A stretch of DNA of 64,000 nucleotides from NCBI GenBank assembly GCA_918797485.1, contig CAKKNE010000004.1, forward strand, positions 1,798,001 to 1,862,000, written 5' to 3'. This document shows positions 18,300-62,689 of the stretch, piece after piece. A program made the position numbers and the translations under genes. A model generated the notes under the pieces. It did not search any database. It saw nothing but the letters and a program-made list of their open reading frames with translations, and had not been told where the DNA came from. Source of the DNA: Pelagomonas calceolata (taxonomy: Eukaryota). Every line of letters starts with the position of its first letter. Position 1 is the stretch's first letter.

Positions 18300-18900
18300 A
18301 GAAAGTCGTAGTGTAATGATGTCTTTATCTGCTCCAACGTGATCAAGAAGATACATTGCTTCTCTATGTGTCAAATTGAGACTATCCATGACCGTCGCAA
18401 CACTGAGTTTAATAACGGTCACTAGAGACGATATAGTCCGAGTCCCAGTGCCCCTCCATCGCAAGGTAAGTGACCATTGAATATTGTTGCCGTTTTGGTC
18501 CGACTATGAAATTTGCAACGGGAAGTTCGTCCGTCAATAAAAGTGACTGAGGATGATAATAGTCATGGTTGGGACTCGGAGTGAGAGGCGACTTCATCAT
18601 GATGAGCAGGGAAATAGGTACTAGGCGCGCCTTGTGTTTTCGATAGGTGCCATCTGCATCTCGCTTGATCTTCAACACCAGCCTTGTGCTGACGGCTTGG
18701 AATGGTCTAGAGTCACCTCTAGGCTAAACACACCTATTTTGCACAAGTCGCCAATCTCTTTCATTATTGCTGCCACCATTGCTTCACGCTGATCAGGTGG
18801 GTATTCTTCCAACTCAGCAATATCTTCTGGCTTATAGATGATGTCATCTGCATGAAGCTGTATTGATATTTTTCAAAAGTTTGCCGCATCATCATATTGA
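18300..18900 (-). pseudogene. Degenerate Ty1/copia reverse transcriptase fragment with an adjacent partial LTR copy
   Basis: LKIKRDADGTYRKHKARLV matches the copia RT N-terminal K.K...DG...KARLV motif. The frame is broken and abuts an LTR-like segment at about 18500-18595. Confidence 0.65.
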
Positions 18901-19130
18901 TCCTTTAGAAGTCCCTCGCTTTTTCTAGCTCTTGATCAATGTCTAGATGGCCGTCCTCCCCCCCACTTCGTGTCAAGAGACTATGCAAATTACGGTACCT
19001 ACGGTACGGTCCTTCATAACTTAACAAAATACCTACGGTACGGTACCTACGGTACCTATGTATTCATACGGTATTTGTCAAAAAGCAATAATGAACTTTC
19101 ATCTTGGAACCTGCTTACTTCGAGTTGCAG

Positions 19131-22100
19131 ATGGATGGCTTCAGGTTGCTCCTGGCATATTGTGTACTCGTTGCTTTCGCTCGAAGCACAAATCTTGATC
19201 TTGGTTTAAAGATCGCATTGCATGCCCAATCTAAGTCCTCTCTACATGGTTGGGTTGCCGGCTCCGAGGTCACTACGCGTGGACTGCGACGTGCCTTCCT
19301 CAAAAGGGCTGATGTTTCGATTGTGGAGATATTTGCTCCATTTTGCTATGAAGGTGCTCAAAATTTCACGGCGCCTTCCACGGCATCGTCGCGACGTCTG
19401 CTTACACGCCTGACTTAGGAATTGCCCACCAATGGGATATGTTACTCGTAGAGGGGTTTTCCGGTCCTGTCTATTCCAGGTGCACAAATCAAATTTCACT
19501 GCGCCTTTCGCTATCAACGCAGCGTCTGCTCGATCGCATGGTAGTGCGGGTCTCTCACCACTCGGCTTGGCCAGCACGGCTGCGTTGTCGCCGAGCAATG
19601 ACTTTGTGAAGAATTATCCAGGTGCACCTGACTCAGTGGTTGAGTTGCACACAGGTCCAGTCTGTAATACGTGGCATGCGTCGGTTTAATAAACAAATCG
19701 CTGTGTTCCATTCTGTGTGGAAAGCAAATTAGGCGGCCCGTGCGCCATCGATGCGATGTCATCCCGTAACTGCGCCTGCTCGATGGCGTGGAGGTTGACG
19801 AAGCACTCTCGCAGTAATTCTCAGATAACCTGACTCGCTGGTTGATTTCCACACAGGTTCCATTGGTGTCTGGACACATATCCAACACTCGCCTCGGTAG
19901 CAGCGATTGATGTCGATAGTTTTCTCACAAACTCACGGCTTTTGGCATTACATGGGTTTACTATGGCAGGTGGTAATGTTCTTGGTTTGGCGTCACCTTG
20001 GTTTCACAAGGCCGTCGGCGACTCGGCGCGGACATGACTCTTCAGCGTGAGACGTGTCGACTGCGTCAACGCGACGGCGTCGCTCCACGCAGAACCTCGC
20101 ACCTCGTGAGTTCGTAGCACTCGCCGTGGATACTAGAGAAATGAAACCACCGTCTGACGCGCGCGCGCAACGATCTGTGTAGAAAATCGTACTCTTCACC
20201 CTCCACACCATACAGTTAATGGGATGGCATCGCGTCGATGGCGTAGGGGCTGACTCGATCGACCTCAAAGATGGTCTCCGCACAGGCATCCCTCCAGCAA
20301 TGATACTGTCGTTGTGTATCTTGGGCAGCCCTCATACAGCAAAGCGCTACTCGCCAAGACACTTCTTGCTCTGTATGACGTTCCCGGTGTAAGGCTGAAA
20401 ATCTATGGGTCTGCGTGGGATCATTTTTCGCTGCAAGACAAGGATTATGCGCGGCTGGCGGCTTGCTGCTGGCAAGGCAGACTCCCTAGTGGTAGCATCG
20501 CCAGACTTTATGCAAATGCAACCGTAATACTCGGCACAACCGATTCTTCACAGCGGCGCCTGGGCATGGTGAACAACCGTGTATTTGAGGCACTCGCGTG
20601 CAGCGGTGGTCAATTTGTTGCTGTTGAAGAGCGTGGAGTAGACTTTTTCTCCGAGTTGCGAGGTGCAATAAGATCGCATGGTGTCGTAACTTACGCGACG
20701 ACTGATGGAATTAAAGCAATCACAGATCTGCTAGTTGCGTATCACCCCTCCTCGACCTTACTACGTCGCGTTGCTGCTAAAGCACGCGCACATGCAATTA
20801 GGCATCACACATACGACACACGGGCGGCGATAATCTTAAATGTCGCTGCACGTCACTACAATAGTGTAAGATCACAAAAACCACGATCCGGTCGGCCCAT
20901 AGTCACCGTTATTGTTGACGGTGGCGACATCGTAGACTGGGAATTCATATACGGACTATTACCAGCATTCTTGGCGCATGATCGTGAATGGCAGTTACGA
21001 GTATTCGATGCAAGCACCATGGATGTCAACGCAATCGCTGGTTCGGCGCTTGTAGTGGCTCGTGGTCCTTGGGGTGGTGTTGCCATGCGCCTAGTCAGCG
21101 CGTTGGATGATTTTGCAGCATGCGCCACAGGGGGTGGGATCCGTGGTATGCCACGGCGCCCGGTGACCGCGATTTCCCTTCAACATGTACGCAGTCCAGC
21201 TCTGCCCATGGGCATAAATTGCAAGGAAGTGTTAAGATTTGATGCGATATTTCATGATTCTATCGTTTCCAAACTGCCTCTGTGTCTCGAGCATCACCCC
21301 AACGCACGGGTTGCCCTTGGCGTTAATGTAGCCGCGCTCCATAAGGATTGGTTTTGTTCGACTACTGGTTCCTGCGCAGGCTCAGCTAATGGTCGAGATA
21401 ATTACGAGACAAGAAAGCTATGGGTTTATAACAAAAACACCGCCCCTAAGCAAGAGATGGAATGTCTGGATTGGTACGACTTTGCTAGTTGGAATGGGGG
21501 AAAACATATTAGATCGTACCGTCGTCGATGTGTCCATGTTCAACGACTGATGCGTGCAGAGACGTTCCTTGCAGTTCTGCGGTCTAGTCAGCCCCTTGGA
21601 CTTCTATTTTCACAACCAAGCGACATAGGAACCTTCCTGTATCTCGCCAGTCTTGCTGTTGGTGCTGTTATTCGCACTCCAGGTGATAATGCATCATTGG
21701 TGCGCGTCCTTTCGCTCGGTCCGAAGATCTTAGCTAATTATTTTTGTCTTGAAACTCTGACAAATGTGCTCGTAAATACCTTAGTTTGGACATTGGATTC
21801 CCCACGGTCGATAGCTGACCTTGAAATCATGGCCCCAGGAGAAGAAGACACCCTTGTTTGCAGTCACGATGTGCAGAACCCTGGCTCAATCTGGAAATGC
21901 TCTATCCCGGTGACAGTTAGTCTACAATCGTTCGTGCCTCCAGACGATGGTGTCTGGTGTGTGCATGTCAACGAAATTGAACTCGTTTGCCAGGGTGACA
22001 CAAAAGAACAAGTGAGGGCTGACTTTGAATTTGATCTGGGAGACATGACAGCTTACACTGTTCGCGTCTGTGCTGTTCTTCGGAGTCCCAACGCAGACCT

Positions 22101-22155: not shown

Positions 22156-23195
22156 GGTGATGGTCGAACTGTTTGCATGTGATGTCGAAGTAAGTCAGGG
22201 TAGTCCTTCAAGTTGACTTGAACGCCAACTACATAATACATACACCACTATCTATTCTCCCATCGCGCCTCGCCGCGCGACATCGAAGCGGCACCTCCCG
22301 GGCCTCCGGCTCAGGCTGCCAGTACGCGCCGGCCCGGCCCGCCGGGGCTACAACGAGTCCGGGTCTGTGTGACTCGGACTTTCGGTCACGATGATGAGGG
22401 ACCTCCGGCAGGTCGGCTGTCGGGGCTGCCTCAGGATCCGCGCAAGCTCCGCCTGGCTCCCGCCATTTTCGAGTTAGCGAGCAATCAACCCAGGGAGATC
22501 CAGGGCTATCTGATGAAAAGAATCAACTATTTGCGATTGAGACGACGGCACTCAGAGGCCTGGTGAATATCCTTTTTATGCGAAGTTCGCTGTCACTGAC
22601 CCAAAGGTATGATCCACGTGTGAGAATATCAGTATTGGCTTCATCAAGAATGACATTGCCTAATGCAACCTCTGCCTTGAGGCCGGAAACACTCCCCCCA
22701 TTAGCAATGTAGTCCTTGATGCTGGACGCGCTGTTGAGAGCCCTATTTTCGCTCTTCTTAATACGATGCAGAGGAAGCATGGCTGTTGCGAGGCTGTTGC
22801 CCTCCGCATGAGACAGGTCATACCCCGGGGAGTCGGATACAAGCCCCACCAGTAGGGCCGAATGCTGCATCTCATGTGACCGCACTGTAAGGTTTAGTGG
22901 CAGGTGACCGTCGCAAGAGGGAGGTTTGTATAGAGTAGCCTCCTGCAGGCCTGGGGGTGCCTACTGTGTCTCATCTTCCCATAGTAATTTCTCCCCCTCT
23001 TCACATGTATCGTGTTGCCTTTATTATCCGCAACTTGAAAAACGGTGACCACAAAACAACCCACCGTTTTGCGTGGCAATCGCTCCGAGTCAACGCAGAA
23101 TTCTGGGGCATAATTCACCGTGACAGCGGCGGAGGGGCTAGGCTTTGGCAATTCCGACATTGAAAGCGGCTCGCTGAATTCCCAGTGCTCTTCAC

Positions 23196-23304
23196 GGTAC
23201 CGTACCGTAGGTACCGTAGGTACCTACCGTAGGTACCCTAGGTACCTACCGTAGGTACCGTAGGTACCGTAGGTACCAGCAAGTACGTACCTACGGTACG
23301 GTAC
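23196..23304. repeat. (GTACCGTAG)n tandem array
   Basis: Direct observation. Related arrays at 18991-19058 and 40620-40716. Confidence 0.9.
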
Positions 23305-24713: not shown

Positions 24714-25052
24714 TGCGATGCAGAGGGAAATAGAGCGTGTAGCTCCGGACTTCCCCGGCAGCGTAGTGTAGTCGTCTAACGAAATGGTTTCTCCCATGTT
24801 TGATGGGGTTTGCGACGGGAAATTCGTCCGTCAATAAAAGGTGACTCAGGATGATAATAGTTAGGAGTGAGAGGCGACTTCCCCCTACTAAGGGGATATC
24901 GGAGTCACGGTCACTACCGTGCCAGTGATGGTACCGTAGGTACCCTCAGGCTAGGATGGGAAGTAGCCTAGGCGGGTAATACAAGTGCGGGTTGTGCTTG
25001 GATACGTCTCAGTTGAGCCTTGGGATCCTACTAGACGTGTATTTCCATTGCA
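24714..25052. mobile_element. LTR (solo) copy, TGCGATG...CATTGCA
   Basis: Homologous to 51945-52257 along its length. TG...CA ends with a short inverted repeat. No matching TSD. Confidence 0.75.
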
Positions 25053-25094
25053 CTCTCTTCGAGCTAAAAAAGGGGAGGCACTACAAGAATATAA

Positions 25095-25220
25095 TTCATT
25101 AATTAAGGGAGGAATATCCCAAAGGAAAGGACATACACAAAGCCTCTAAACTTGAAAGGCCTTCTCCCTGCGCCGGACCTGCGCCGCCGCTAGGATACCC
25201 AGCCGGCGCTTAAAAATACA
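25095..25220. repeat. Dispersed repeat family (GGAATATCC..AAAGGACATACAC.AAGCCTC...)
   Basis: Homologous copies at about 41340-41450 (reverse), 43890-43960 and 62695-62745 (reverse). Confidence 0.75.
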
Positions 25221-40579: not shown

Positions 40580-42114
40580 TACCGCGTTGTGGATTTTTAA
40601 GTTAATTCTCGTCCTACCACGGCACCTACTGCGGTACCTACGGTACGGTACAAGCTGGTACCTACGGTACCTACGGTACCTACGGTACTGACCTACCACG
40701 GTATGGTACCGTAGGTATTCTTCTCTCCCATACAGCCCCCATACTGAACATTACTGAACACCGGGAGGCCCCAAACAAACCAAGGTTGCCCCACAGCAAA
40801 CGCAAGCGCAGCCCGGCGGCCTAGAATAAACTTCAAGTTCACTGGCAAGCCTGCCAGTGACTCGGCCCGGGAGCCACTGCCAGTGAGTGCCAGTGACGGT
40901 CACGGTTGAATAGTATTTCAATAACTTGAACCTGAAGGAATCGAGGACGAAGCCTGAGTCGGAAGGACTCGGACACCGTGACAGGCCCAGGCGCGGCGGC
41001 CCCGGCGGGCCGGGCCCGGGGGGTCCACATCCGACTCGGAGTCGCCGGGCACTGGCAGTGACCATGACAGCGGCTCGGGGCCCGGGCCGGGCCCGGGCGC
41101 CGCTCGGCGCAGATGCTCGGTACCGCTTTTTTGCGTCGCGCCCCCAGGCTCACTGGAAAGGGCAACACCTCAGCCTGAGAGGCTCAGCTAAAAATACGGG
41201 CATTTTACAAGTCGATTCCCCGGGCCGTCCGAGTCCCCCTAGTACTAGCATCTTGAAAGTGGAAGTCACGGTGGTGCCATAGAGTGGTGCAATAAATAAA
41301 TACTTACCAGGAGATTGAGAATTTGCTCTACCGTTTCTTGACGTCTCTTTTTAGGCGCCGGCTGGGTATCCTAGCCGCGCCGCAGGGAGAAGGCCTCTAG
41401 AGGCTTGGTGTATGTCCTTTTCCTTCAGGATATTTCTTCCTTAATTAATTATTTATTTATTTTATTTTTAAGCATCGAGGACAGACTCAGCGAGGACACA
41501 GCCTGAGTCACGGTGAGATCATTTCAGTTGGGGAGGAATAACCTTGCACCCGAGCCGCTAGTCTGAGCGGTCGCAATACGACGCGCGGAAGCTGAATTGG
41601 TAAATAAATGCCTTGCCACACGACGGCATTGATGGCACTGATGGCCTACCGAGCGGCTGTTTATAATGGTGCTGCCGGTCTTTTATTATTTATTGACGCA
41701 CCGGGATGCTCCCGGTAGCCTGAGCAGACCAGTGTAAAAAAAGGCTGGCCATGGGCTGCACGGCCCGGGCGCAGCAGAAAAAAAAAATGGATCTGTCCTA
41801 GTAGTCTGGATCCGTTGTGCAGTAACCCATTCTAGTTAGAACCAACTTCAAGCAAGGGAAGATAAGGCAGAAAGTCACGTGACCCAAAGATTTTAACGGT
41901 GACTGGCTCCATCTTTGCTTAGGGGCCTGGTAGGGTCAAGTTTCTTGGTCGGCATCATGATTTTGAAGGAGGCTGATGATGCTTAGGGTAAAGCAATACC
42001 CTGCCCAAGCCGCCAGAGGAGTCGAACGATCTTAAATGATCACGTGCACAATTCTACCATGCAAGCTATCTTACGAGAGCCCAGAGCTAGCCTACAGCCA
42101 CAAACTCTATACGC

Positions 42115-43232: not shown

Positions 43233-44572
43233 GGGTTGAACACAATTATTGTACGGTTATTAGAATTAGAATCATCTGCGTTCGGAGGTACCTACGGTAT
43301 AGCAAGAGTATGTCGCAGCGTTACGTAAAGTAGTAGGGTCCTAGCTCACCAGCCAGAGGCTGGGCCAAGCCAACTACGAGAGTGTTTTATAGTAAATTGG
43401 TTTACACACCGTAGCGTCGATAGACACTCAATACATATCTAGGGTAGGATGGGCTAGTAGGTTTCTCTCTCTACTCCCCTTGGACGCGAGCGTTCATCAG
43501 ATGCCCTTCTCCATGTTCAGCGCTTCGAGGTCCGCAGGCGCATATGAGAATCCAGATGCAATAAGTCCTATACGAACTTTACGAGATGAATCATCCGTTA
43601 CCGTGGCAGTTCTGAACGCGATCATGACTCGGATATGACACCGTGACCCACCCCGGGCCGAGGGTGGAGCACGTAGTTGTGCATCACCTCTTCTGAACGG
43701 GGAGAAGGGTGCATCCTCGAGTGCATACTTAAATTTTGGTGGTATATTCACCTTTTGCTCTTTGTAGGCCCGGGTAAATAAATAAAGACAGCGGCCTGAG
43801 TGACTCGGACTCTGACTCGGCCCGGGAGCCTGAGAAATAACTTGAAATACCTGCTAGTACTAGTAGGTAAATGATAAACTTGAAGGAAGCCTGAGGAATA
43901 TCCTAAAAAAAGGGACATGTGACCAAGCCTCCAAAGGCCTCAGGCTTTCCCTGCGCGCCTAGTACTTTAGTTAGGGGCATCCTATTGTTTATAATACTAT
44001 GATACATACAAAAATTAAAAAAAAAATTAGCCTAATAACTAAGCCTGAGGAAGCCAGCCTCAGCTGACTTGGTGACCTAAAACTTCAAGTTGAAAATATT
44101 TATAGGTCGAATTCAGCCAAGGCCCGGGGGGTACAGGCAGTGTGCAGGTTCTATTGTAGTACGCCTATACATCTCTATACTGCCTATATACCTCTTGGAT
44201 TTGGCCAAGGGACTCGCCCGGGCCAAGGGCAGGCCTCCCCGAAGAAAACTTACTAACCAAACTCACTTTCGGCAGCTACCATCTTGATTTCCTGGAGGAT
44301 TTCTCCCGTCCGCAGCCTATTGCTATTCCAGCAACTCTTGCGCAAGTGGCAGTCGTCCCGCGCCAGTTGCGTTCGTGCTGCATCGCACGATCTGTTGGCT
44401 TGACGGCCGTGTTTGCACATCCTACCGACGCCACAACAAAGTACCCAGGATCCCCCCGGAGAGGAAACTGCTAGCACAGAGGCGAATTCACCAAAATTGA
44501 CTCCTGAGTGAGTGAGTACCCCCACTTTTCCGGGTCGAGAAAAACATGCGCCACTAAGGCAAGAGCTAGGCA

Positions 44573-47500: not shown

Positions 47501-50074
47501 CTCGATGAATGGAAGAAGGTTGACTCCCTCCCACGGGTTTCGCTTGCCTTCCATATCAACATCAAAGTCACTTGGATAAAAGTCATGAAGGGGCGATGAG
47601 TCCTCGAGCATCAGTGCACGATGCGGCCGTGGCAACAAGCGAGCACTCGCAGGTGGAAGGCACGACATGAGCTGCTCGAGCGGCCGAAGTGGTGCACTGA
47701 CTTCAAAATGAGCACCAGCAAGCGCAGTAGCAACGTTCACCACATCGGAGAGCATTGGACAGTAGTGACATGGGAAAAACCAACGCCAGTCAACGCATCC
47801 TTTGACGTAATATGCAAGGCACCAAGCGAGGCCCTCTACAAAGGCGGCTGATAGACGTTTGATAACATTCTGCGAGCAACGGACCAATTTCGGTTCGATG
47901 GTCGTCGCGTCCTTCGGTACACCGACGGGACACATCCAGGCGGTCTCCTTTGTTGTGGCGTTGTAGAAGTACGTGTTCCCAGTTGACGGATCCCTGGCCG
48001 AGTTCCAGTCTATCATTGTCTTGCTCTCAGTGGCGATGCCTGCGTCGACAATCTGCTGATCGACCAGACCTGTGTAGAAATCAACCAGTGAGTCAGATTA
48101 CCTGCGCCATTGTGCAGACTCAGTCACGGAGACAATGCTGCGTCTATAATGTGGGCCCCTAGGAGGCAGGGTGCTTAAAATTTGATTTCCACACAAGATC
48201 AGACTGCTAATGCCAAGAGTGCGAAGGTAGTATTTTTCGCGGTCTGAGTTGGTGAGGCCAGGAGCCGACGCTGCGGTAACATTCTCGGTGCCATCAGGAA
48301 TAGTTTTGCCGTTATGGCTCCGTGAGAAACGTCGTTGCTCACGCTCGGCTTCGCGTCTCCGGTCTGCAAGGATGGCGGGCTCCATGGCACCAAGCTCGGA
48401 AATAAAGCGCTGAAGTCGGTGCGCATTGGCCTGTGCAAAAATAAAATTGTCGCGGCTCGTCTCCGCTACTGCTGAATCATGACCTCCACGCCATCGACGC
48501 AACGCCTGCTCGATGGCGTGGCGGTGTAGGTCTCTCACCACTCGATTCAGTCAGCATGGCCGTAATGTCGCCGAGAAATGACTTTGTGATGAATTATCGG
48601 GCGCACCCGACTCAGTAGTTGACTCCCACACAGGCATTTGCTATGTCGCCAGCATCGGTGAGATAGTCGCCGGGAGGCCATGTGGCGAGTTGGCGCTTGT
48701 AGGCGTCAAAGACTCGATTGAACGCGTGTTCGCCTATGTCAAGAGAGGGCGAGTGCGGCAGGAAGTCGTTGCCAACAAAGAAGGTGAGGAAGACAAAATC
48801 ATCAACGAGACGTTCAAGATCCACCGAGCGCCCCGAGACACCTTGTCTCCACGCAATACCGAGCTCATTGCTGCGCCCAGCTCCATTTTTACGAGCGCGA
48901 GGACCGACGCTAGTTCGGGCATCGATATGCGACGCATAGGATGCCGGTGGAGAGCAGCAGAATTCGAGTTGGATGTATTCGCGGAGGATCGAGAGGTGAA
49001 GGAGCTGAAAGTCCGAACTTCGGGACTGCTTGAAAACGGTGGACCGCGCGTTGACAGGTGTATCACGCAGACGATTGTTCGCGCCGAAGTCTATAACCTC
49101 TCGGAGTAACGTAAAGTAGGGCTCGTGAGTGCAGAGGCCCAACATTATCAAATCTGCATCGTTTCCATACATGCCTGCGCAGAGACGGATGGCGTCCTCC
49201 CTCCACCGCGTCGACGCGTTTTAAGTTGACGACGCGGCGTCTACAGTGGCGAGTGGGGGTGTTGCCATCGTCTCTGTGGGCGCGAATATACTGCATTATT
49301 TTATGCTCACCTTCGCCTGGTACCTGTGCGAGAGAAAGTTCGGCATCCCTCCACGCCATCGAGCAGACGCAGTTGTGACATTTGCACCACTGTACACGAC
49401 TCGGAGTCGAGACCTGTGGGTGAAAGACCTCCGTCAATCCACGCCATCGAGCAGAAGCAATTCGAGATTGTGTTTTTGCTTTTGTTCTCCTGCACGGGTC
49501 GACACCACGCCGCGTCCTGTCCCATCTTCCAGCGTATATAACCACGAAGCTTGTCACCAATACGTGCCATAAAGGCGGTCCCTGGCGTGATACAGTTGCG
49601 GTCAAATCCCCCATCTTCGTCTCCCTGACTACGGGCAGATTCCTTGGCCGCAGCAAACCTTCTACTGCGCTGTTGGTTCAGTTTTGCTCGCGGGGCAACG
49701 CCGTCGACGGCTATGAATAGCACTTTTTGCGGGCGCACGATATGCTTTACGATCCGGTCGACGTACGCGAATATTGATAGAAGCATGTCTCTCTCCGATG
49801 GTGTGCTGGTAGCACCCTCTGGATGAGAGCAGGCGTGGATGATGCCGTTCCTACGTGGATGGTTGTGCTGGTGGTGGCAGCTCTTCGACACTGAGTCTGC
49901 ACATATCTAGATACAAATTATCGAACACGGGAAGCAGCGCTTGGTCCTTGATTACGGAGTTTACTGTGTGAATAAACAGTGTGAATAAACAAACAAAAAA
50001 AGAACAATTTGACACGAGTCCGCACTCTTAGGATAGCGCTCGCTGAGCCAGCGATAGAAGCGTGGCACCCCCAT
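44573..50074 (-). CDS. XRN1: 5'-3' exoribonuclease 1
   Basis: MGVPRFYRWLSERYP, DNLYLDMNGIIH, AVDGVAPRAKLNQQRSRRF, FDRNCITPGT, VPGEGEHKIM, YGNDADLIMLGL, GNDFLP, WRWFFPCHY. Introns at 49964-50025, 49851-49902, 49414-49505, 49324-49379, 49175-49244, 48431-48641 and 48070-48204 restore these motifs. Confidence 0.95.
48070..48204 (-). mobile_element. Introner intron in XRN1 (sense orientation)
   Basis: TSD GACCAGAC (48062-48069) / GATCAGAC (48197-48204); CTGTGTAGAAATCAA...TTGATTTCCACACAA termini. Confidence 0.88.
48431..48641 (-). mobile_element. Introner intron in XRN1 (antisense orientation, GC donor)
   Basis: TSD GCATTGGC (48423-48430) / GCATTTGC (48634-48641); CTGTG...CACAG. Removal gives DAGDI|ANAHRL in frame. 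Confidence 0.9.
49414..49505 (-). mobile_element. Introner intron in XRN1
   Basis: TSD GTCGAGAC (49406-49413) / GTCGACAC (49498-49505); contains CCACGCCATCGAGCAG. Removal gives DAAW|SRLRVVYSGAN. Confidence 0.85.
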
Positions 50075-50718
50075 CTCTCTCGCTCGCGCTCGCGCTCGCG
50101 CTGAGCTCTTTATCAAGTCGAGTCGCTGAGCTGCTTCCTTCGCGGCGGCCGCCTGTGGGGAAATCGACGAGTGAGTTATGGTATCGATGCCGTCTAAGTT
50201 CAATGCGTCGATGCCGTGGAACCTCCACGCCATCGAGCAGGTGCGTGAGGCGTCTGAATTTCGATCTCCACACGTCTGCCATACTTATCTCTTTTCGCGC
50301 CTTGCTTAGCTATCGGGTCTATGTACTTACATGTAGATAAGACACTAGCCCGTCAGATTGTCAGATTATTATTCGCGTACTACTTTCTACGTCGACACCA
50401 CGGGCCTTAGAGCTAGTTCTGACACGCAGTGCTCATATATCTCTCTATCAGCGGATAGTTTGCGCGTAGGGTTTTGGGGGCACTTTACGGCTCGTGTGGA
50501 TCCGCATTTGTGCCGCCAGCGCATGTGGAGGTCCTAGGAACTCGTCCGCGCCTGGCGTAAAGAGCGCGCGTTGAAAGCTAGCCGCCTCGGCGGTCTGCGA
50601 GTGCCCAAAAGCCTGGTGCTCTGCGAAGGCCCTAAATCGGCGCGCGACTGCGAACAGATCTCCAAATCCGATTGCTGCCGCGATGGCGCGATGGCGTGAT
50701 GGCGCGATGGCGATGGCG

Positions 50719-51944: not shown

Positions 51945-52257
51945 TGCGATGCATAGGGAAATAGAGTGTGTAGCTCCGGATTTCCCCGGTAGCGTAGTGT
52001 AGTCGTCTAACGAAATGGTTTCTCCCCGGGCCATGTTTGATGGGGTTTGTGACGGGAAATTCGTCCCGGGCCGTCAATAAAAGGTGACTCAGGATGATAG
52101 TTAGGAGTGAGAGGCGACTTCCCCCTACTAAGGGGATATCGGAGTACCCTAGGATGGGAAGTAGCCTAAGCGGGTAATACAAGTACGGGTTGTGCTTGGA
52201 TACGTCTCAGTTGAACCTTTGGGATCCTAGTAGTACTAGACGTGTATTTCCATTGCA
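51945..52257. mobile_element. Solo LTR with 5-bp TSD (CAGGG)
   Basis: TG...CA termini; CAGGG at 51940-51944 and 52258-52262; four other homologous copies in the window. Confidence 0.85.
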
Positions 52258-52552
52258 CAGGGGATCTGAATCGCCTCGTAGACCCCGCCCGGGCAGGTAT
52301 CTAGGTATACTTCTCAACGCTATTAATAGCATCGTGAAACCGTGACGCGCCAGCGGATGAATGATAACTTCCTTCAAGTTCGTCCGAGTCGATGTAGTAG
52401 TTACTAGCCTGCCAATGAGTCCGAGTCTTTGTATGGATGGGGTGCGAGTTACTAGTACTCCCAGTTTCGACTCGGACTCGGACGGAGCTCTCATGTCCCC
52501 GGTACTGGAAGTATGAATACATACTAGACTGTCCAGCGATAGTCTCCAAACG

Positions 52553-54852
52553 ATGATCGCGTCGGCGTCTGTGCCGTTTCACTCGGCATCGCTGTATGTT
52601 GGCGACCTTGCTGCTGATGCTTCTGAGGTACGTTGTGCATACCTTGACGTTATTAGTGTATTTCGCAGGGCCTGCTCTTTGAGATCTTCAACACAGTTGG
52701 CCCTGTTGCATCCATTCGTGTTTGTCGCGATGCAGTAACACGTCGAAGTCTAGGCTATGCGTACGTCAATTTTCACAACGTGTCAGATGCTGAAAGGGCA
52801 TTAGACACAATGAACTATACGCTGATCAAGTCTAAACCATGTCGAATTATGTGGTCGCAACGAGACCCTACGCTGAGGAAATCGGGGGTGGGCAACGTCT
52901 TCGTAAAGAATCTTGACGCCTCCATTGATCACAAGGCCTTGTTTGACACTTTTTCGTTGTTTGGAAACATCTTGTCATGCAAAGTGGCCACAGATGAGAC
53001 TGGGCAGTCACAAGGATATGGTTATGTGCACTACGAGTCCGAGGAGGCCGCAACTGATGCGATAAGCAAGATAAACTCAATGACCATATGCGACAAGGAG
53101 GTGTACGTTGGTCACTTTGTGCGGCGTACCGAACGGTCAGGTCAAGCAGATTGGACAAATCTTTATGTGAAAAATTTCCCCGCTGAATGGGATGAGTCCA
53201 ATTTGCGCAAAACATTTGAACTGTATGGAGCCATTACCTCGTGCAAAGTACAACCCCTTAGGATTTCAATCAAGCCAAAGGCTGAAGAGACCGTTGGAGC
53301 AAAGGAAGCAACATCCGCGGCACAAGAAGCAATGGACGAGGCCAAGCACACGCGTCACGACGCTGGTGAGGAGCTGCCGCCTTCTGTGGCGAGAAGCGGT
53401 TCCACGGCTACATCAATTGATGTAAACTCAGGAGAGTCAGCTTCACCAACTGAAGTATCTGCCTTCGGATGGGTTAACTTTGAGCACCATGATTCTGCTG
53501 TTGCTGCCATAGAGGCGCTCAATGGAGCAAGTGAGTTGCCTCAAAAGGAGAGCGGCTCCACGATACATCTCAAAGCTCCGCTCTTCGTTGGTCGAGCGCA
53601 GAAAAAAGTTGAGCGCGAGCGCGAACTTAAGGCCAAATTTGATGCAGCTAAGATAGAACGCATCAAGAAGTATCAAGGTGTAAACTTGTTTGTCAAGAAT
53701 CTAGATGATGCCTTAGATGACGATCAGTTGCGGGAACATTTTGCGGAATTTGGCACAATAACTTCTGCGCGCATCATGCGCGAACCCGCCTCTGGTACTT
53801 CTAGAGGTTTCGGGTTTGTGTGTTTTTCATCACCTGAAGAAGCTGCCAAAGCCGTCACTGAAATGAATAACAAGCTGGTCCTCGGTAAGCCAATTTTTGT
53901 TGCGCTAGCACAGCGCAAGGAAGTGCGTCGCGCTCAGTTGGAGGCTCAACACGCACAGCGTCGGACCCCTGGCCCCTATGGTACACACCCTGGTACCCTT
54001 GGACCTGGTGGTGTACCAAGTCACGGGCCTCAGGGTTTGCATCCGGCACATCTGGCTGCGCCGTACGGCGCCGCAATGCCTATCATGTACGCTGCAGGTA
54101 CACCTGGCGGTCACCCTATGGGAATTCCCCCCCAAGGCCACCCAGGCGTTCCTATATCGAGTGTCCCGCCAAACGCTCGTGGCTATGTTATGGCTCGCGG
54201 CTCACCTAGGGGTCCAATAGCAGATCCACGGACAGGCTTTCACGGAGGTGGGCCTCGTCAGGGAGCATACCCAATCCATCCCGGACAGATGCAGCAAATG
54301 GGAGGCCAGGGTAGTTCCAATAGACGTTCTCGAAACAGGGGAGGACAGGGCGCGCAAGCTCAGGGGGGTCAGCAGTACAAGTACACACAGAATGCGCGCA
54401 ATGCCGCCAACATGGCTCCTAGTATGACGCAACTTCCGCCTCAGGCCCATCTTATGCCTCCCACTGTCGGTCAACAGCCTGGACAAGGTTTTCCTGGTGG
54501 TCCTGGAGTGGCACCACCTATGCCACCACCATTGCCCCTCCAACAGCCCAGTGCGTCTGGCTCTGGACAATCGCCGCGACGCCCCCCTGAGGACCCACTT
54601 ACATTGTCAGCCCTTGCCAATGCCTCCCCAACACTCCAGAAGAACATGATCGGCGAGCGCCTTTATCCCCTGATCCATCACTCTCAACCTGAGCTAGCTG
54701 GCAAGATTACTGGCATGCTACTTGAGATGGACAACTCCGAACTTTTACATCTTCTCGAATCACCAGATGCTTTACGAATGAAAGTAGCAGAGGCCCTCGA
54801 AGTGTTAAAGCAGCATCAGGCGCAGCTCCAGCAGGTGTCTCGCGAGGACTGA
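52553..54852 (+). CDS. PABPC1: Polyadenylate-binding protein (4 RRM + MLLE)
   Basis: ASLYVGDL, SLGYAYVNF, RIMWSQRDP.LRKSGVGNVFVKNL, QGVNLFVKNL, QKNMIGERLYPLI...AGKITGMLLEMD. Short intron at about 52628-52668. Confidence 0.96.
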
Positions 54853-55094
54853 TTTTGGGCCAATCAAAATTACTTGATCCATGGGTTTAGAATATTACTG
54901 AGGATATGGGAGCTCAGTTCTCGGGCCGAGCCCTGGTCGTGCCACTGCAGCGGGGGGGGGGTTATTTTGAGGTTGTCTTACAAGCAGTGCGCAGCAGGGG
55001 GAATTGAAATGGAGCCCGGGTGCCAGTGCCACAATGTCCAATTCCCGGGCCAACCTTGGGTTCCCCGGCGGCAGCATTTGAGGGGACTTGCAGC

Positions 55095-55368
55095 ATCCGC
55101 CAATAAAAGTGACTCAGGATGAATGTATCATAGTTAGGAGTGGGAGGCGATCATGATTTCCCCCTATAACTTGAAGGGGATATCGGAGTACCCTGCAGGG
55201 TGGGACCGTGACGTAAACACCTAGCAAACGTTTACTTCTCCCCTCCGAGAGGCCTCCAAACACTTGCCATCACGTCCCACCCTGGTACCCTGCTAGGATC
55301 ATGGGGGTAGGTAATACAAGTACGGGTCACGGTTGTGCATGGATACGTCTCAGTGAATTTCCATTGCA
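55095..55368. mobile_element. Partial LTR copy carrying a nested MITE
   Basis: Aligns with the 3' half of 51945-52257 and ends in CCATTGCA. Confidence 0.7.
55196..55284. mobile_element. hAT-like MITE (TIR CAGGGTGGGACGT, 8-bp TSD GTACCCTG)
   Basis: TSD at 55188-55195 and 55285-55292. The element is absent from the other LTR copies. Confidence 0.85.
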
Positions 55369-57599: not shown

Positions 57600-58838
57600 C
57601 TAGTATGGGCCTAGAGTGCACTAGTATACATGTAGAGTATAGTTACTCTAGATAAGCCCTGTGCTCAGCAGTCGCGTGTGCTGCCACGGGATAGTGCGCT
57701 GGAAGAACCATAGCCAGGACTTCACAGCGATGCGCACGAGAAAAGCTGGCCTGAAGTACGGCCCTTCCGACGCGCCCATGTTGGCCCCCGCGAAAATTTT
57801 TTGCTGAGCCGAGGCTGACCGAAGGTAACAAAGTCAGTGGAACGCGCAGGGGCAGTATTTGCACCGATTCCGTCGCTGAGACCATGTGCGGCGCTACGTA
57901 GAAGAAATCGCCAGGCGGCATGTGCCAAAAAGGCAATGGATCAGGCACATGCGTGGGGTAGCCTCGGCCACTGCGACCGCATTCGAGCGCTCGAGAAGCT
58001 GGAGATGGTGTCGTATTGTGTGTCGCGGTGGGGACCGTCTCGCAGTCGACTAAAAGTCCCCGAACCAAACAATGGGCCTCGAGGCGCAGGCGAGGAGAGA
58101 ACAACCCCTGTGAGCGATAATTGACGCTGAGGAGCCCCAGAAGGCGAAGTGAAGGGGGTTGTAAAAAAACGGGGGGGGGGGGGTCCGAAATTTATCTAAA
58201 TTTCAAAGTTTCCTACTAGAAGTAGGAGCCCATGTCTCGGGCGGCGCCCAGAGCTCCAAGTGGCTCTCCCTCGCGCCATTTTTGCGCGTCTCAGTTTGAA
58301 ATCCATTAGCTTCCGCCTAATTTGATGGCAGCGATGCCACCCTGTACCCCGTGGCAGCAACTTGAACCGCTCGGCGGACATCAAAACAACGTCACGGTAC
58401 CGGTATTTTCAAGTTTTACCTAGCTACCCCCTCATTTCCTAGCTGTGTTTATTAACTGTGTTTATTACACGTTGCGTGTTGAAGGGTGATGTAAGTGTAT
58501 AGGAAGGGTATAGGATAGGGGGGGGGGGTATTTCGCCCTACCAGTATTTATCGAACTCCGAGTCTGCTCGGAATTTACCGTGACGTCGCAAAGGCCTACC
58601 TAGACGCTTCAGTGGCTCGGGAGGCGTGGTCTACACGCGAGGGGTTTAGGATCCTGCTACTTTATATAACGCTGCGACATACTCCTGCTATCATGTATCA
58701 TCCCATAAGTTAACATAAGTTGTACTCGTGTACCCGCCCTGTACTGTACCAATAGGTATCCTTACCCTTGCTCTTGCTTATCCAGCCTTCTGAGCACGGT
58801 CTGCCTATGGCTCCTCGCCACTAGCTGGCATCTACAAA

Positions 58839-62053: not shown

Positions 62054-62228
62054 TGCGATGCATAGGGAAATAGAGTGTGTAGCCCCGGACTTCCCCGGCA
62101 GCGTAGTGTAGTCGTCTAACGAAATAGTTTCTCCCATGTTTGATGGGGTTTGTGACGGGGAATTGCGTCCGTCAATAAAAGTGACTCAGGATGATAATAG
62201 TTAGGAGTGAGAGGCGACTTCCCCCTAC
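62054..62228. mobile_element. Partial LTR copy, fused to a putative retroelement-internal ORF fragment (62172-62663, minus strand)
   Basis: Near-identical to the 5' half of 24714-25052. The adjacent ORF has no motif I recognise. Confidence 0.65.
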
Positions 62229-62662
62229 AAAAGTCATGGAATTCAGTATTTCGGAGTAATCAATCTCTTTCTGGCTATTGGACCAGTGCTCAACGTAGTT
62301 AGCCACTGGCAGTAGACAATAATCTTTGACATGTTCATTTACGTCATACGTAGTCCCAGGTAAATGTTCGGTAGACTTTTCTGTTGCGTACATAAGAGAC
62401 TCGGGCTGGTACTTGATCGCCACAAGCTGCGCTTGTGTTATACCCAGTGCCTTGGCAATCTGTTTATCTTGCTCATAAAGACTCCAGATCTTCTGTTTCT
62501 CAGCCTTCGATAGGTGTCTGCTGGGTCCTGTTTCGTTTCCATAGTTGGTGAGGGAGCTTTTTGGTTCGTACCACAGTTTCATAAAGTTGAAAAAGCTTTG
62601 ACGGTCAATTCTCTCTCCCCCGGAACGGAGTAGGGTCCAGTCAGCTTGAGCACCGTTCTCCA

Positions 62663-62689
62663 TGTGTGTGTGTGTGTGTGTGTGTGTGT
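62663..62689. repeat. (GT)n microsatellite
   Basis: Direct observation. Confidence 0.95.

Follow-up and report, generated by a model that had tools for sequence, protein, structure and literature searches.

What process could write one and the same construction, with a different pair of letters each time, into the non-coding DNA of a marine alga? The question is raised by a 64,000-nucleotide stretch of Pelagomonas calceolata (GenBank assembly GCA_918797485.1, contig CAKKNE010000004.1, positions 1,798,001 to 1,862,000 of the forward strand; hereafter the window), in which copies of a long terminal repeat (LTR) hold an octamer in some places where other copies hold a bare dinucleotide. A first, sequence-only reading listed nine such octamers, and all nine are present where it placed them. 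Behind them stands a fixed rule, by which a dinucleotide XY becomes XY-C-rc(XY)-G-XY (rc, reverse complement) with a net gain of 6 bp. That reading spoke of the octamers as insertions; insertions they are, but the inserted length is 6 bp, the octamer including both copies of XY. We call the resulting octamers scars, and we regard it as probable that they are the excision footprints of a cut-and-paste DNA transposon with 5'-C...G-3' ends and a 2-bp target duplication, formed through hairpins on the flanking DNA.

The rule is greatly over-represented. The window holds 177 rule octamers where an order-2 Markov model predicts 17.9, and they use all 16 possible XY dinucleotides. Replacing the C and G by any of the other 15 pairs of tip bases yields 13 to 56 matches (13 to 29 once the rule sites are masked), and XY-C-rc(XY)-G-XY ranks first when set against every pattern T-a-rc(T)-b-T in which T has 1-4 bases and a and b have 0-2. 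With gene spans drawn by hand, 19.6 kb of the window is intergenic and contains 151 of the octamers, or 7.7 per kb (about one per 130 bases), which together make up roughly 6% of this DNA; 100 Markov simulations of the same intergenic DNA gave a mean of 6.2 and a maximum of 12. The rate of one to several events per 300 bp that had been estimated from the repeats thus fits well, at about 2.3 per 300 bp. The 44.4 kb of gene spans holds the remaining 26 octamers, several of them in untranslated regions. Scars within coding sequence that keep the frame were not demonstrated, as none of the coding indels against a sister lineage fits the rule and the sole rule match lies just past a stop codon. Bacterial and phage DNA does not have the excess: in 78 loci of at least 8 kb (1.34 Mb) the ratio of observed to expected octamers has a median of 1.06 and a maximum of 1.94. 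Motif scans of viral contigs gave 11 unrelated matches in one case and 0 in each of two others, and a scan of prokaryote genomes returned chance matches only.

There is almost no preference for a particular target. Dinucleotide use is near background, with CG, GC and TA lower (about 0.5 of expectation; 0.56 for TA) and GA higher (1.4). The base adjoining the scar is mildly G/C-rich (G 0.33 and C 0.28 against 0.25, at 271 sites), and positions beyond it are nearly flat. Nor do the tip bases depend on what surrounds them, since 154 of the 177 sites have flanks other than C..G. The scars do cluster, with 56 neighbours at a spacing of 8-30 bp where 23 are expected (the maximum in 2000 draws is 37), and collapsing the scars to their empty state reveals 11 further rule sites, which suggests nesting or tandem copies.

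To ask how the scars vary among living strains, we turned to the gene for the poly(A)-binding protein (PABP) in the window:

52537..54955, + strand: PABP gene, free of internal scars; query for orthologous loci

This query returned 78 loci, among them ten metagenome contigs that we used as the same species and compared with the window from 42.7 to 64 kb. All ten are metagenome consensus sequences and five share one assembly prefix. Alleles inside LTR copies may therefore be mis-assembled; sites in unique DNA, such as the one at 52339, are free of that problem. Between the contigs and the window we find 28 distinct six-base indels, and 20 of the 28 fit the rule exactly (12 filled in the window, 8 in a locus), so that the tabulation of six-base indels proposed in the sequence-only reading comes out in its favour. 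The 20 polymorphic rule sites have 11 different flank pairs. A 2-bp direct repeat bounds 23 of the 28 indels, and the rule accounts for 20 of these 23. Rule octamers make up 8.7% of intergenic words of the form XY-NNNN-XY, and drawing 20 out of 23 by random deletion would have a probability of about 8e-19. The direction of change can be read at 52064, where a single empty allele has become a CC scar in the window and, one base leftward, a TC scar in contig L003; the two cannot both be deletions from one ancestor, and hence they are insertions.

The same polymorphism appears when octamers are collapsed before alignment, which we did in nine intergenic blocks covering about 4 kb, with 3-9 haplotypes each. 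Here 62 distinct sites are found, 10 of them fixed, 18 polymorphic with an identical empty context and 34 unclear. Five control rules give 0-1 polymorphic sites each against the 18 of the scar rule. The blocks contain 66 isolated single-nucleotide polymorphisms (SNPs) beside the 18 clean scar sites, a ratio of 0.27 or more that is rough, as changes near gaps were left out of the SNP count. Independent sequencing runs share the octamers across long identical pieces, and a scar at 41033 is missing in 2 of four further marine runs compared. The earlier proposal that each repeat copy has private scars is thus borne out and was, if anything, understated, many scars being polymorphic between living strains.

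The sites themselves are listed below (scars and scar fields are unstranded; LTR copies other than B are named by letter or by start position).

51945..52257, + strand: solo LTR copy B, with TG...CA ends and a 5-bp target duplication
52025..52032: rule scar at CC; copies 24714 and 62054 and contig L003 hold the empty state; a different insertion lies about 2 bp rightward in three contigs
52065..52072: rule scar at CC; empty state in copies 24714 and 18512 and in 3 of the 6 contigs that cover it
52339..52346: rule scar at AC, in unique DNA that lies upstream of the PABP gene; known from the window alone, 9 of 9 covering contigs lacking it
52373..52380: rule scar at TT, also in unique DNA; 5 of the 9 covering contigs lack it
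55021..55028: rule scar at TG; in the window only, cleanly empty in 8 of 8 other haplotypes
55150..55157: rule scar at AT, within LTR copy D, which is degenerate; 5 of the 6 orthologous contigs that cover the site are empty
55168..55175: rule scar at AA, again in LTR copy D; fixed, with 6 of 6 haplotypes carrying it, and paralogues without the scar
55326..55333: rule scar at GT, likewise in LTR copy D; copies 24714 and 51945 hold the empty state
24714..25053, + strand: LTR copy A, with its own scars at 24904, 24920 and 24945 and a TA-type insertion
24945..24952: rule scar at CT; LTR copy B (51945) holds the bare dinucleotide
18573..18580: rule scar at GA, within LTR fragment E, with a left flank unlike that of other copies
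25149..25156: rule scar at AA in a second repeat family; paralogue differs by 7 bases
43939..43946: rule scar at CT, also in this second family; the L003 allele is empty
40751..41474: densest of the scar fields, with 21 octamers over 724 bp
43431..44238: scar field with 16 octamers in the window; three haplotypes together have 30 distinct sites, of which only 3 are fixed

The ends and target duplication of copy B show that this repeat is an LTR, as it had been named. The empty XY state that had been claimed for all nine octamers is confirmed in paralogues or alleles for those at 52025, 52065, 24945, 55326, 55150 and 43939, and is less clean at 18573, 55168 (where one neighbouring base is also missing, for a net +5 against the other copies) and 25149. 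On the point on which the insertion claim had been staked, the family consensus, the sequence common to the LTR copies is free of octamers. The LTR family is a neutral recorder that carries scars and not their cause; a Ty1/copia reverse-transcriptase fragment adjoins another of its copies. That place, at 62054-62663, has a truncated LTR and the fragment beside a (TG)n run, and three other haplotypes have a different sequence there.

How could such a uniform product arise? The structure, a target duplication around an inverted copy of the target, supports a hairpin. In the mechanism that we propose, the element would insert with a 2-nt stagger to give XY-[C...G]-XY. At excision the transposase would nick the non-transferred strand one base inside each end, and the freed 3'-OH would attack the opposite strand where element and flank meet, so that each flank would end in a sealed hairpin tipped by C. 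A host nuclease of the Artemis/SNM1 type would then open each hairpin two bases past the tip, leaving the overhangs XY-C-rc(XY) and rc(XY)-C-XY, whose final two bases would pair; gap filling and ligation would yield the exact octamer. Because of the 2-bp target duplication, the overhang ends would always be able to pair. And as the tip is fixed whatever the flanks, it would be the element's own first base, which gives both the 5'-C...G-3' ends and the nick one base inside the element; a pair of terminal inverted repeats would contribute just such a constant C/G. The P. calceolata annotation includes Ku, a Pol X and an SNM1/Artemis-like gene, and nearby DNA transposons with C...G ends do exist, but with 8-bp duplications.

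Set beside known systems, the scars resemble those of Ac/Ds (hAT) elements in plants and yeasts, where palindromic (P-nucleotide) insertions beside the target duplication are joined through microhomology after the element has gone, the published signature of hairpin excision (PMC5873905, PMC2921059, in the parts available). Both the inverted flank copy and the microhomology joint are found here, the central rc(XY) being common to the two predicted overhangs. The differences are equally plain. The hAT duplication is 8 bp, whereas here the empty allele holds XY once and the duplication is 2 bp; the centre of the hAT palindrome, as described in those sources, is the complement of the flanking base, whereas here it is always C/G, and flank-templated tips other than C/G number 28; and hAT footprints are mixed while these scars are nearly uniform. 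A hAT geometry with a 4-bp target was considered and rejected. Tc1/mariner footprints consist of TA, two or three end bases of the element and TA again (PMC4561436, available part), and are similar in their 2-bp duplication and their small insertion of fixed length that retains element end bases; they occur at TA only and have a fixed core, unlike the scars, which use 16 dinucleotides and have the reverse complement of the target in their middle bases. The scars behave like a hairpin excision footprint, but by defining features they are neither hAT nor Tc1/mariner.

We consider the CMC/CACTA clade the likeliest source. The CMCT clade includes the ancestor of RAG1, an enzyme that forms hairpins on the flanks. 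For the members of this clade (EnSpm, Mirage, Plavaka, Chapaev, Transib) the accessible part of PMC12730594 gives ends that are mostly 5'-CA..TG-3' and duplications of 2-5 bp, so that their C...G ends and short duplications would fit the retained bases and the 2-bp duplication of the scars, from which the first C and the last G alone can be inferred. EnSpm elements are known from another stramenopile (PMC12477816, in the portion seen).

Several results weigh against transposon excision. Among the matches listed for the window and 15 loci there is no C...G-ended element with a 2-bp duplication, and no haplotype showed an element at a scar site. No transposase family was matched in scans of 135 open reading frames (ORFs; 39 from the window and 96 more, 95 from loci and 1 from the window), and seven transposase Pfam ids have no match among the annotation rows listed, in an annotation where repeats were masked before gene calling; the rows listed do include one Tc1-like DDE gene. 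Known footprints are far more mixed, with 28 types among 128 Ds excisions (PMC5873905) and, in rice, 8 perfect cases of 94 (PMC4423477), each as given in the accessible part of the source. The by-products that one would expect, XY-C-G-XY and 5-bp forms, are not clearly enriched. Finally, that a CMC transposase would leave its own first base on the flank hairpin is our inference: our searches returned neither a paper showing such cleavage nor a published CMC footprint of this form.

Other candidate sources were rejected. A search for inverted repeats with short duplications returned, among the matches listed, mostly noise and two elements with 8-bp duplications. The ORF at 62232-62663, which is specific to the window, bears a resemblance to a transposase helix-turn-helix in Atlas (score below 0.9), yet it matches a Ty1/copia reverse-transcriptase protein and was for that reason set aside as the cause; a Copia protein query found nothing in viral contigs. 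Introners were considered too, and the one that is resolved has an 8-bp duplication.

Because neither element nor transposase was found, a break scar of the host's own making remains a rival. That some host process and not a parasite is at work, with a nuclease of the Spo11/Topo VI type or a domesticated hairpin-forming one cutting pelagophyte (peri)centromeric DNA and leaving one fixed six-base product at a rate approaching point mutation, is a possibility that we hold tentatively. In its first version, which we judge rather unlikely, a type IIB topoisomerase (Spo11 or Topo VI) makes cuts that leave 5' overhangs of 2 nt, and fill-in, the gain of a C, hairpin closure and end joining give the same octamer with no mobile element. 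Both SPO11/Top6A and Top6B are in the P. calceolata annotation, the rule is identical across several pelagophyte lineages down to 78% PABP identity, the scar sites cluster beyond chance and no element of the proposed kind has turned up. Against this, an untemplated C would be needed on both ends nearly always, and other tip bases are not clearly enriched after masking. Plain 2-bp duplications should also dominate, and by eye only about 3 of 22 two-base indels are clean outside simple repeats, against the 20 rule insertions. With Spo11 end joining, as with the duplications left by Top2, the scars have in common a 2-nt stagger, little sequence preference and hot spots. When Top2 is trapped, 4-bp duplications dominate. 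On the Spo11 side, the part of PMC12918824 available to us reports that 2-nt 5' overhangs can be filled in during end joining; it describes no inverted copy or fixed C/G, and this mouse study expects single unresected Spo11 breaks to rejoin largely error-free. We found no paper on such a Topo VI signature.

In the second version a domesticated or lone hairpin-forming enzyme, akin to a transposase, inserts and removes a substrate that is tiny or transient, or else acts on host DNA by cutting it directly, and there is no multicopy element. It would explain why the product is so uniform, why it is conserved across lineages and why no elements are visible; we nonetheless think it doubtful, given that no candidate gene has been identified and that the source of the C is left unexplained. 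Far less credible is the idea that the octamers are selected binding or chromatin motifs arising by point mutation. They are indeed concentrated between genes and often lie upstream of transcription starts, but ten unrelated sequences have nothing except the construction rule in common, and the clean 6-bp indel polymorphism, with 10 of the 62 sites fixed among haplotypes, contradicts it. The reading in which the octamers came first and slippage between XY copies deleted them from the empty alleles, or in which the pattern is an assembly artefact, as the 2-bp direct repeat around each octamer and the metagenome consensus origin of some alleles might suggest, deserves next to no credence and is refuted by the share of rule words among intergenic words set against that among indels, the empty sequence shared by the LTR copies, the two scars on one empty allele, the near-silent control rules and the independent runs with the same octamers.

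How far does the rule extend? All the pelagophyte loci that we compared surround PABP and have 49-57% GC, and our conclusions cover this low-GC neighbourhood. A sister lineage (locus L007) has 39 rule octamers against 5.4 expected, and a lineage at 78% PABP identity (locus L018) has 26 against 5.2, with two rule insertions that are polymorphic. Loci of the Aureococcus cluster are weakly enriched (12 against 3.8 and 12 against 4.7, with the rule in first place in one locus and in fifth place in the other), and five long loci from outside the pelagophytes show no enrichment. We found no description of the rule in the literature, subscription papers being outside our coverage, and a query with six literal octamers returned no paper with two or more of them. 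The readable portions of the P. calceolata genome paper (PMC9481584) do not describe it either: the word 'motif' is not in the main text, nor 'palindrom' in the supplements.

The gene order ARM-WW, EF-hand, XRN1, IPK, PABP, RuvBL1 corresponds to Pca_4p09270-09320 on P. calceolata chromosome 4 (supplement rows of PMC9481584); the genes are eukaryotic, and the closest named relatives of the window's PABP are from Aureococcus. GC content is 46-57% over most of the window, in a genome of 63% GC whose 52% troughs are taken as centromeric, with no build-up of transposons there, in the available text of PMC9481584. To judge by GC content, the window would lie in such a low-GC, putatively centromeric trough. 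In the sister lineage (L007/L008, 97% PABP identity) the XRN1-IPK block is inverted relative to PABP as compared with the window, and the gene at 23.5-24.4 kb of the window is relocated beside RuvBL1, which amounts to fast local rearrangement. L003 (650-732) and L025 (1902-1984) have, close to the 3' end of XRN1, an 83-bp sequence that finishes in GCAG and is absent at window position 44553, possibly an intron presence/absence polymorphism.

Other elements lie close by. A second family of motifs consists of GGTACC-rich arrays built of TA-CCG-TA-GG-TA units (window 18991-19058, 23194-23300, 24930-24944 and 40615-40717), which may be a Tc1/pogo-type footprint at TA; a 9-bp unit of such an array is polymorphic in the lineage at 78% PABP identity (L018 against L019/L021). 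At window 43486, L025 has an 8-bp insertion that creates a perfect palindrome of 10 bp; it may come from a hairpin that was opened at a different point. An introner-like element at 19713-19856 has CT...AG as its short inverted ends and takes its GT donor from an exact duplication of 8 bp, with related motifs at 48070-48630, 49340-49450 and 50200-50250; the bin 48010-48543 reaches about 250 times baseline depth in a culture run. At 4570-5544 of L015, in the Aureococcus cluster, lies a 975-bp hAT-like element with inverted ends of the CAGGG type and an 8-bp duplication. A high-copy repeat at 43300-43475, near the start of the EF-hand gene, has no Rfam match. Its bin depth is 5155, where the baseline is near 190; a relative of 45 bp lies at 58647-58691, and L025 differs by a 29-bp indel.

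What do the scars mean for the alga? In intergenic DNA a single deterministic type of insertion provides at least 18 polymorphic sites for every 66 isolated SNPs, which places the scars among the major sources of change in the non-coding DNA of an abundant marine picoeukaryote. Should transposon excision prove right, the scars would reveal a cleavage geometry in which the hairpin tip comes from the element's first base, one base off that of hAT, and would predict the ends and the duplication of an undescribed active element whose footprints keep reading frames. Should a host enzyme be responsible, they would be a new signature of break repair, and a host process would amount to a programmed-looking, class-wide mutational signature and a permanent map of breaks, at base resolution, in a dominant ocean alga. 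Either way, the scars are easily recognised and polarised, and can serve as markers both in population genetics and in mapping the places where DNA is cut.

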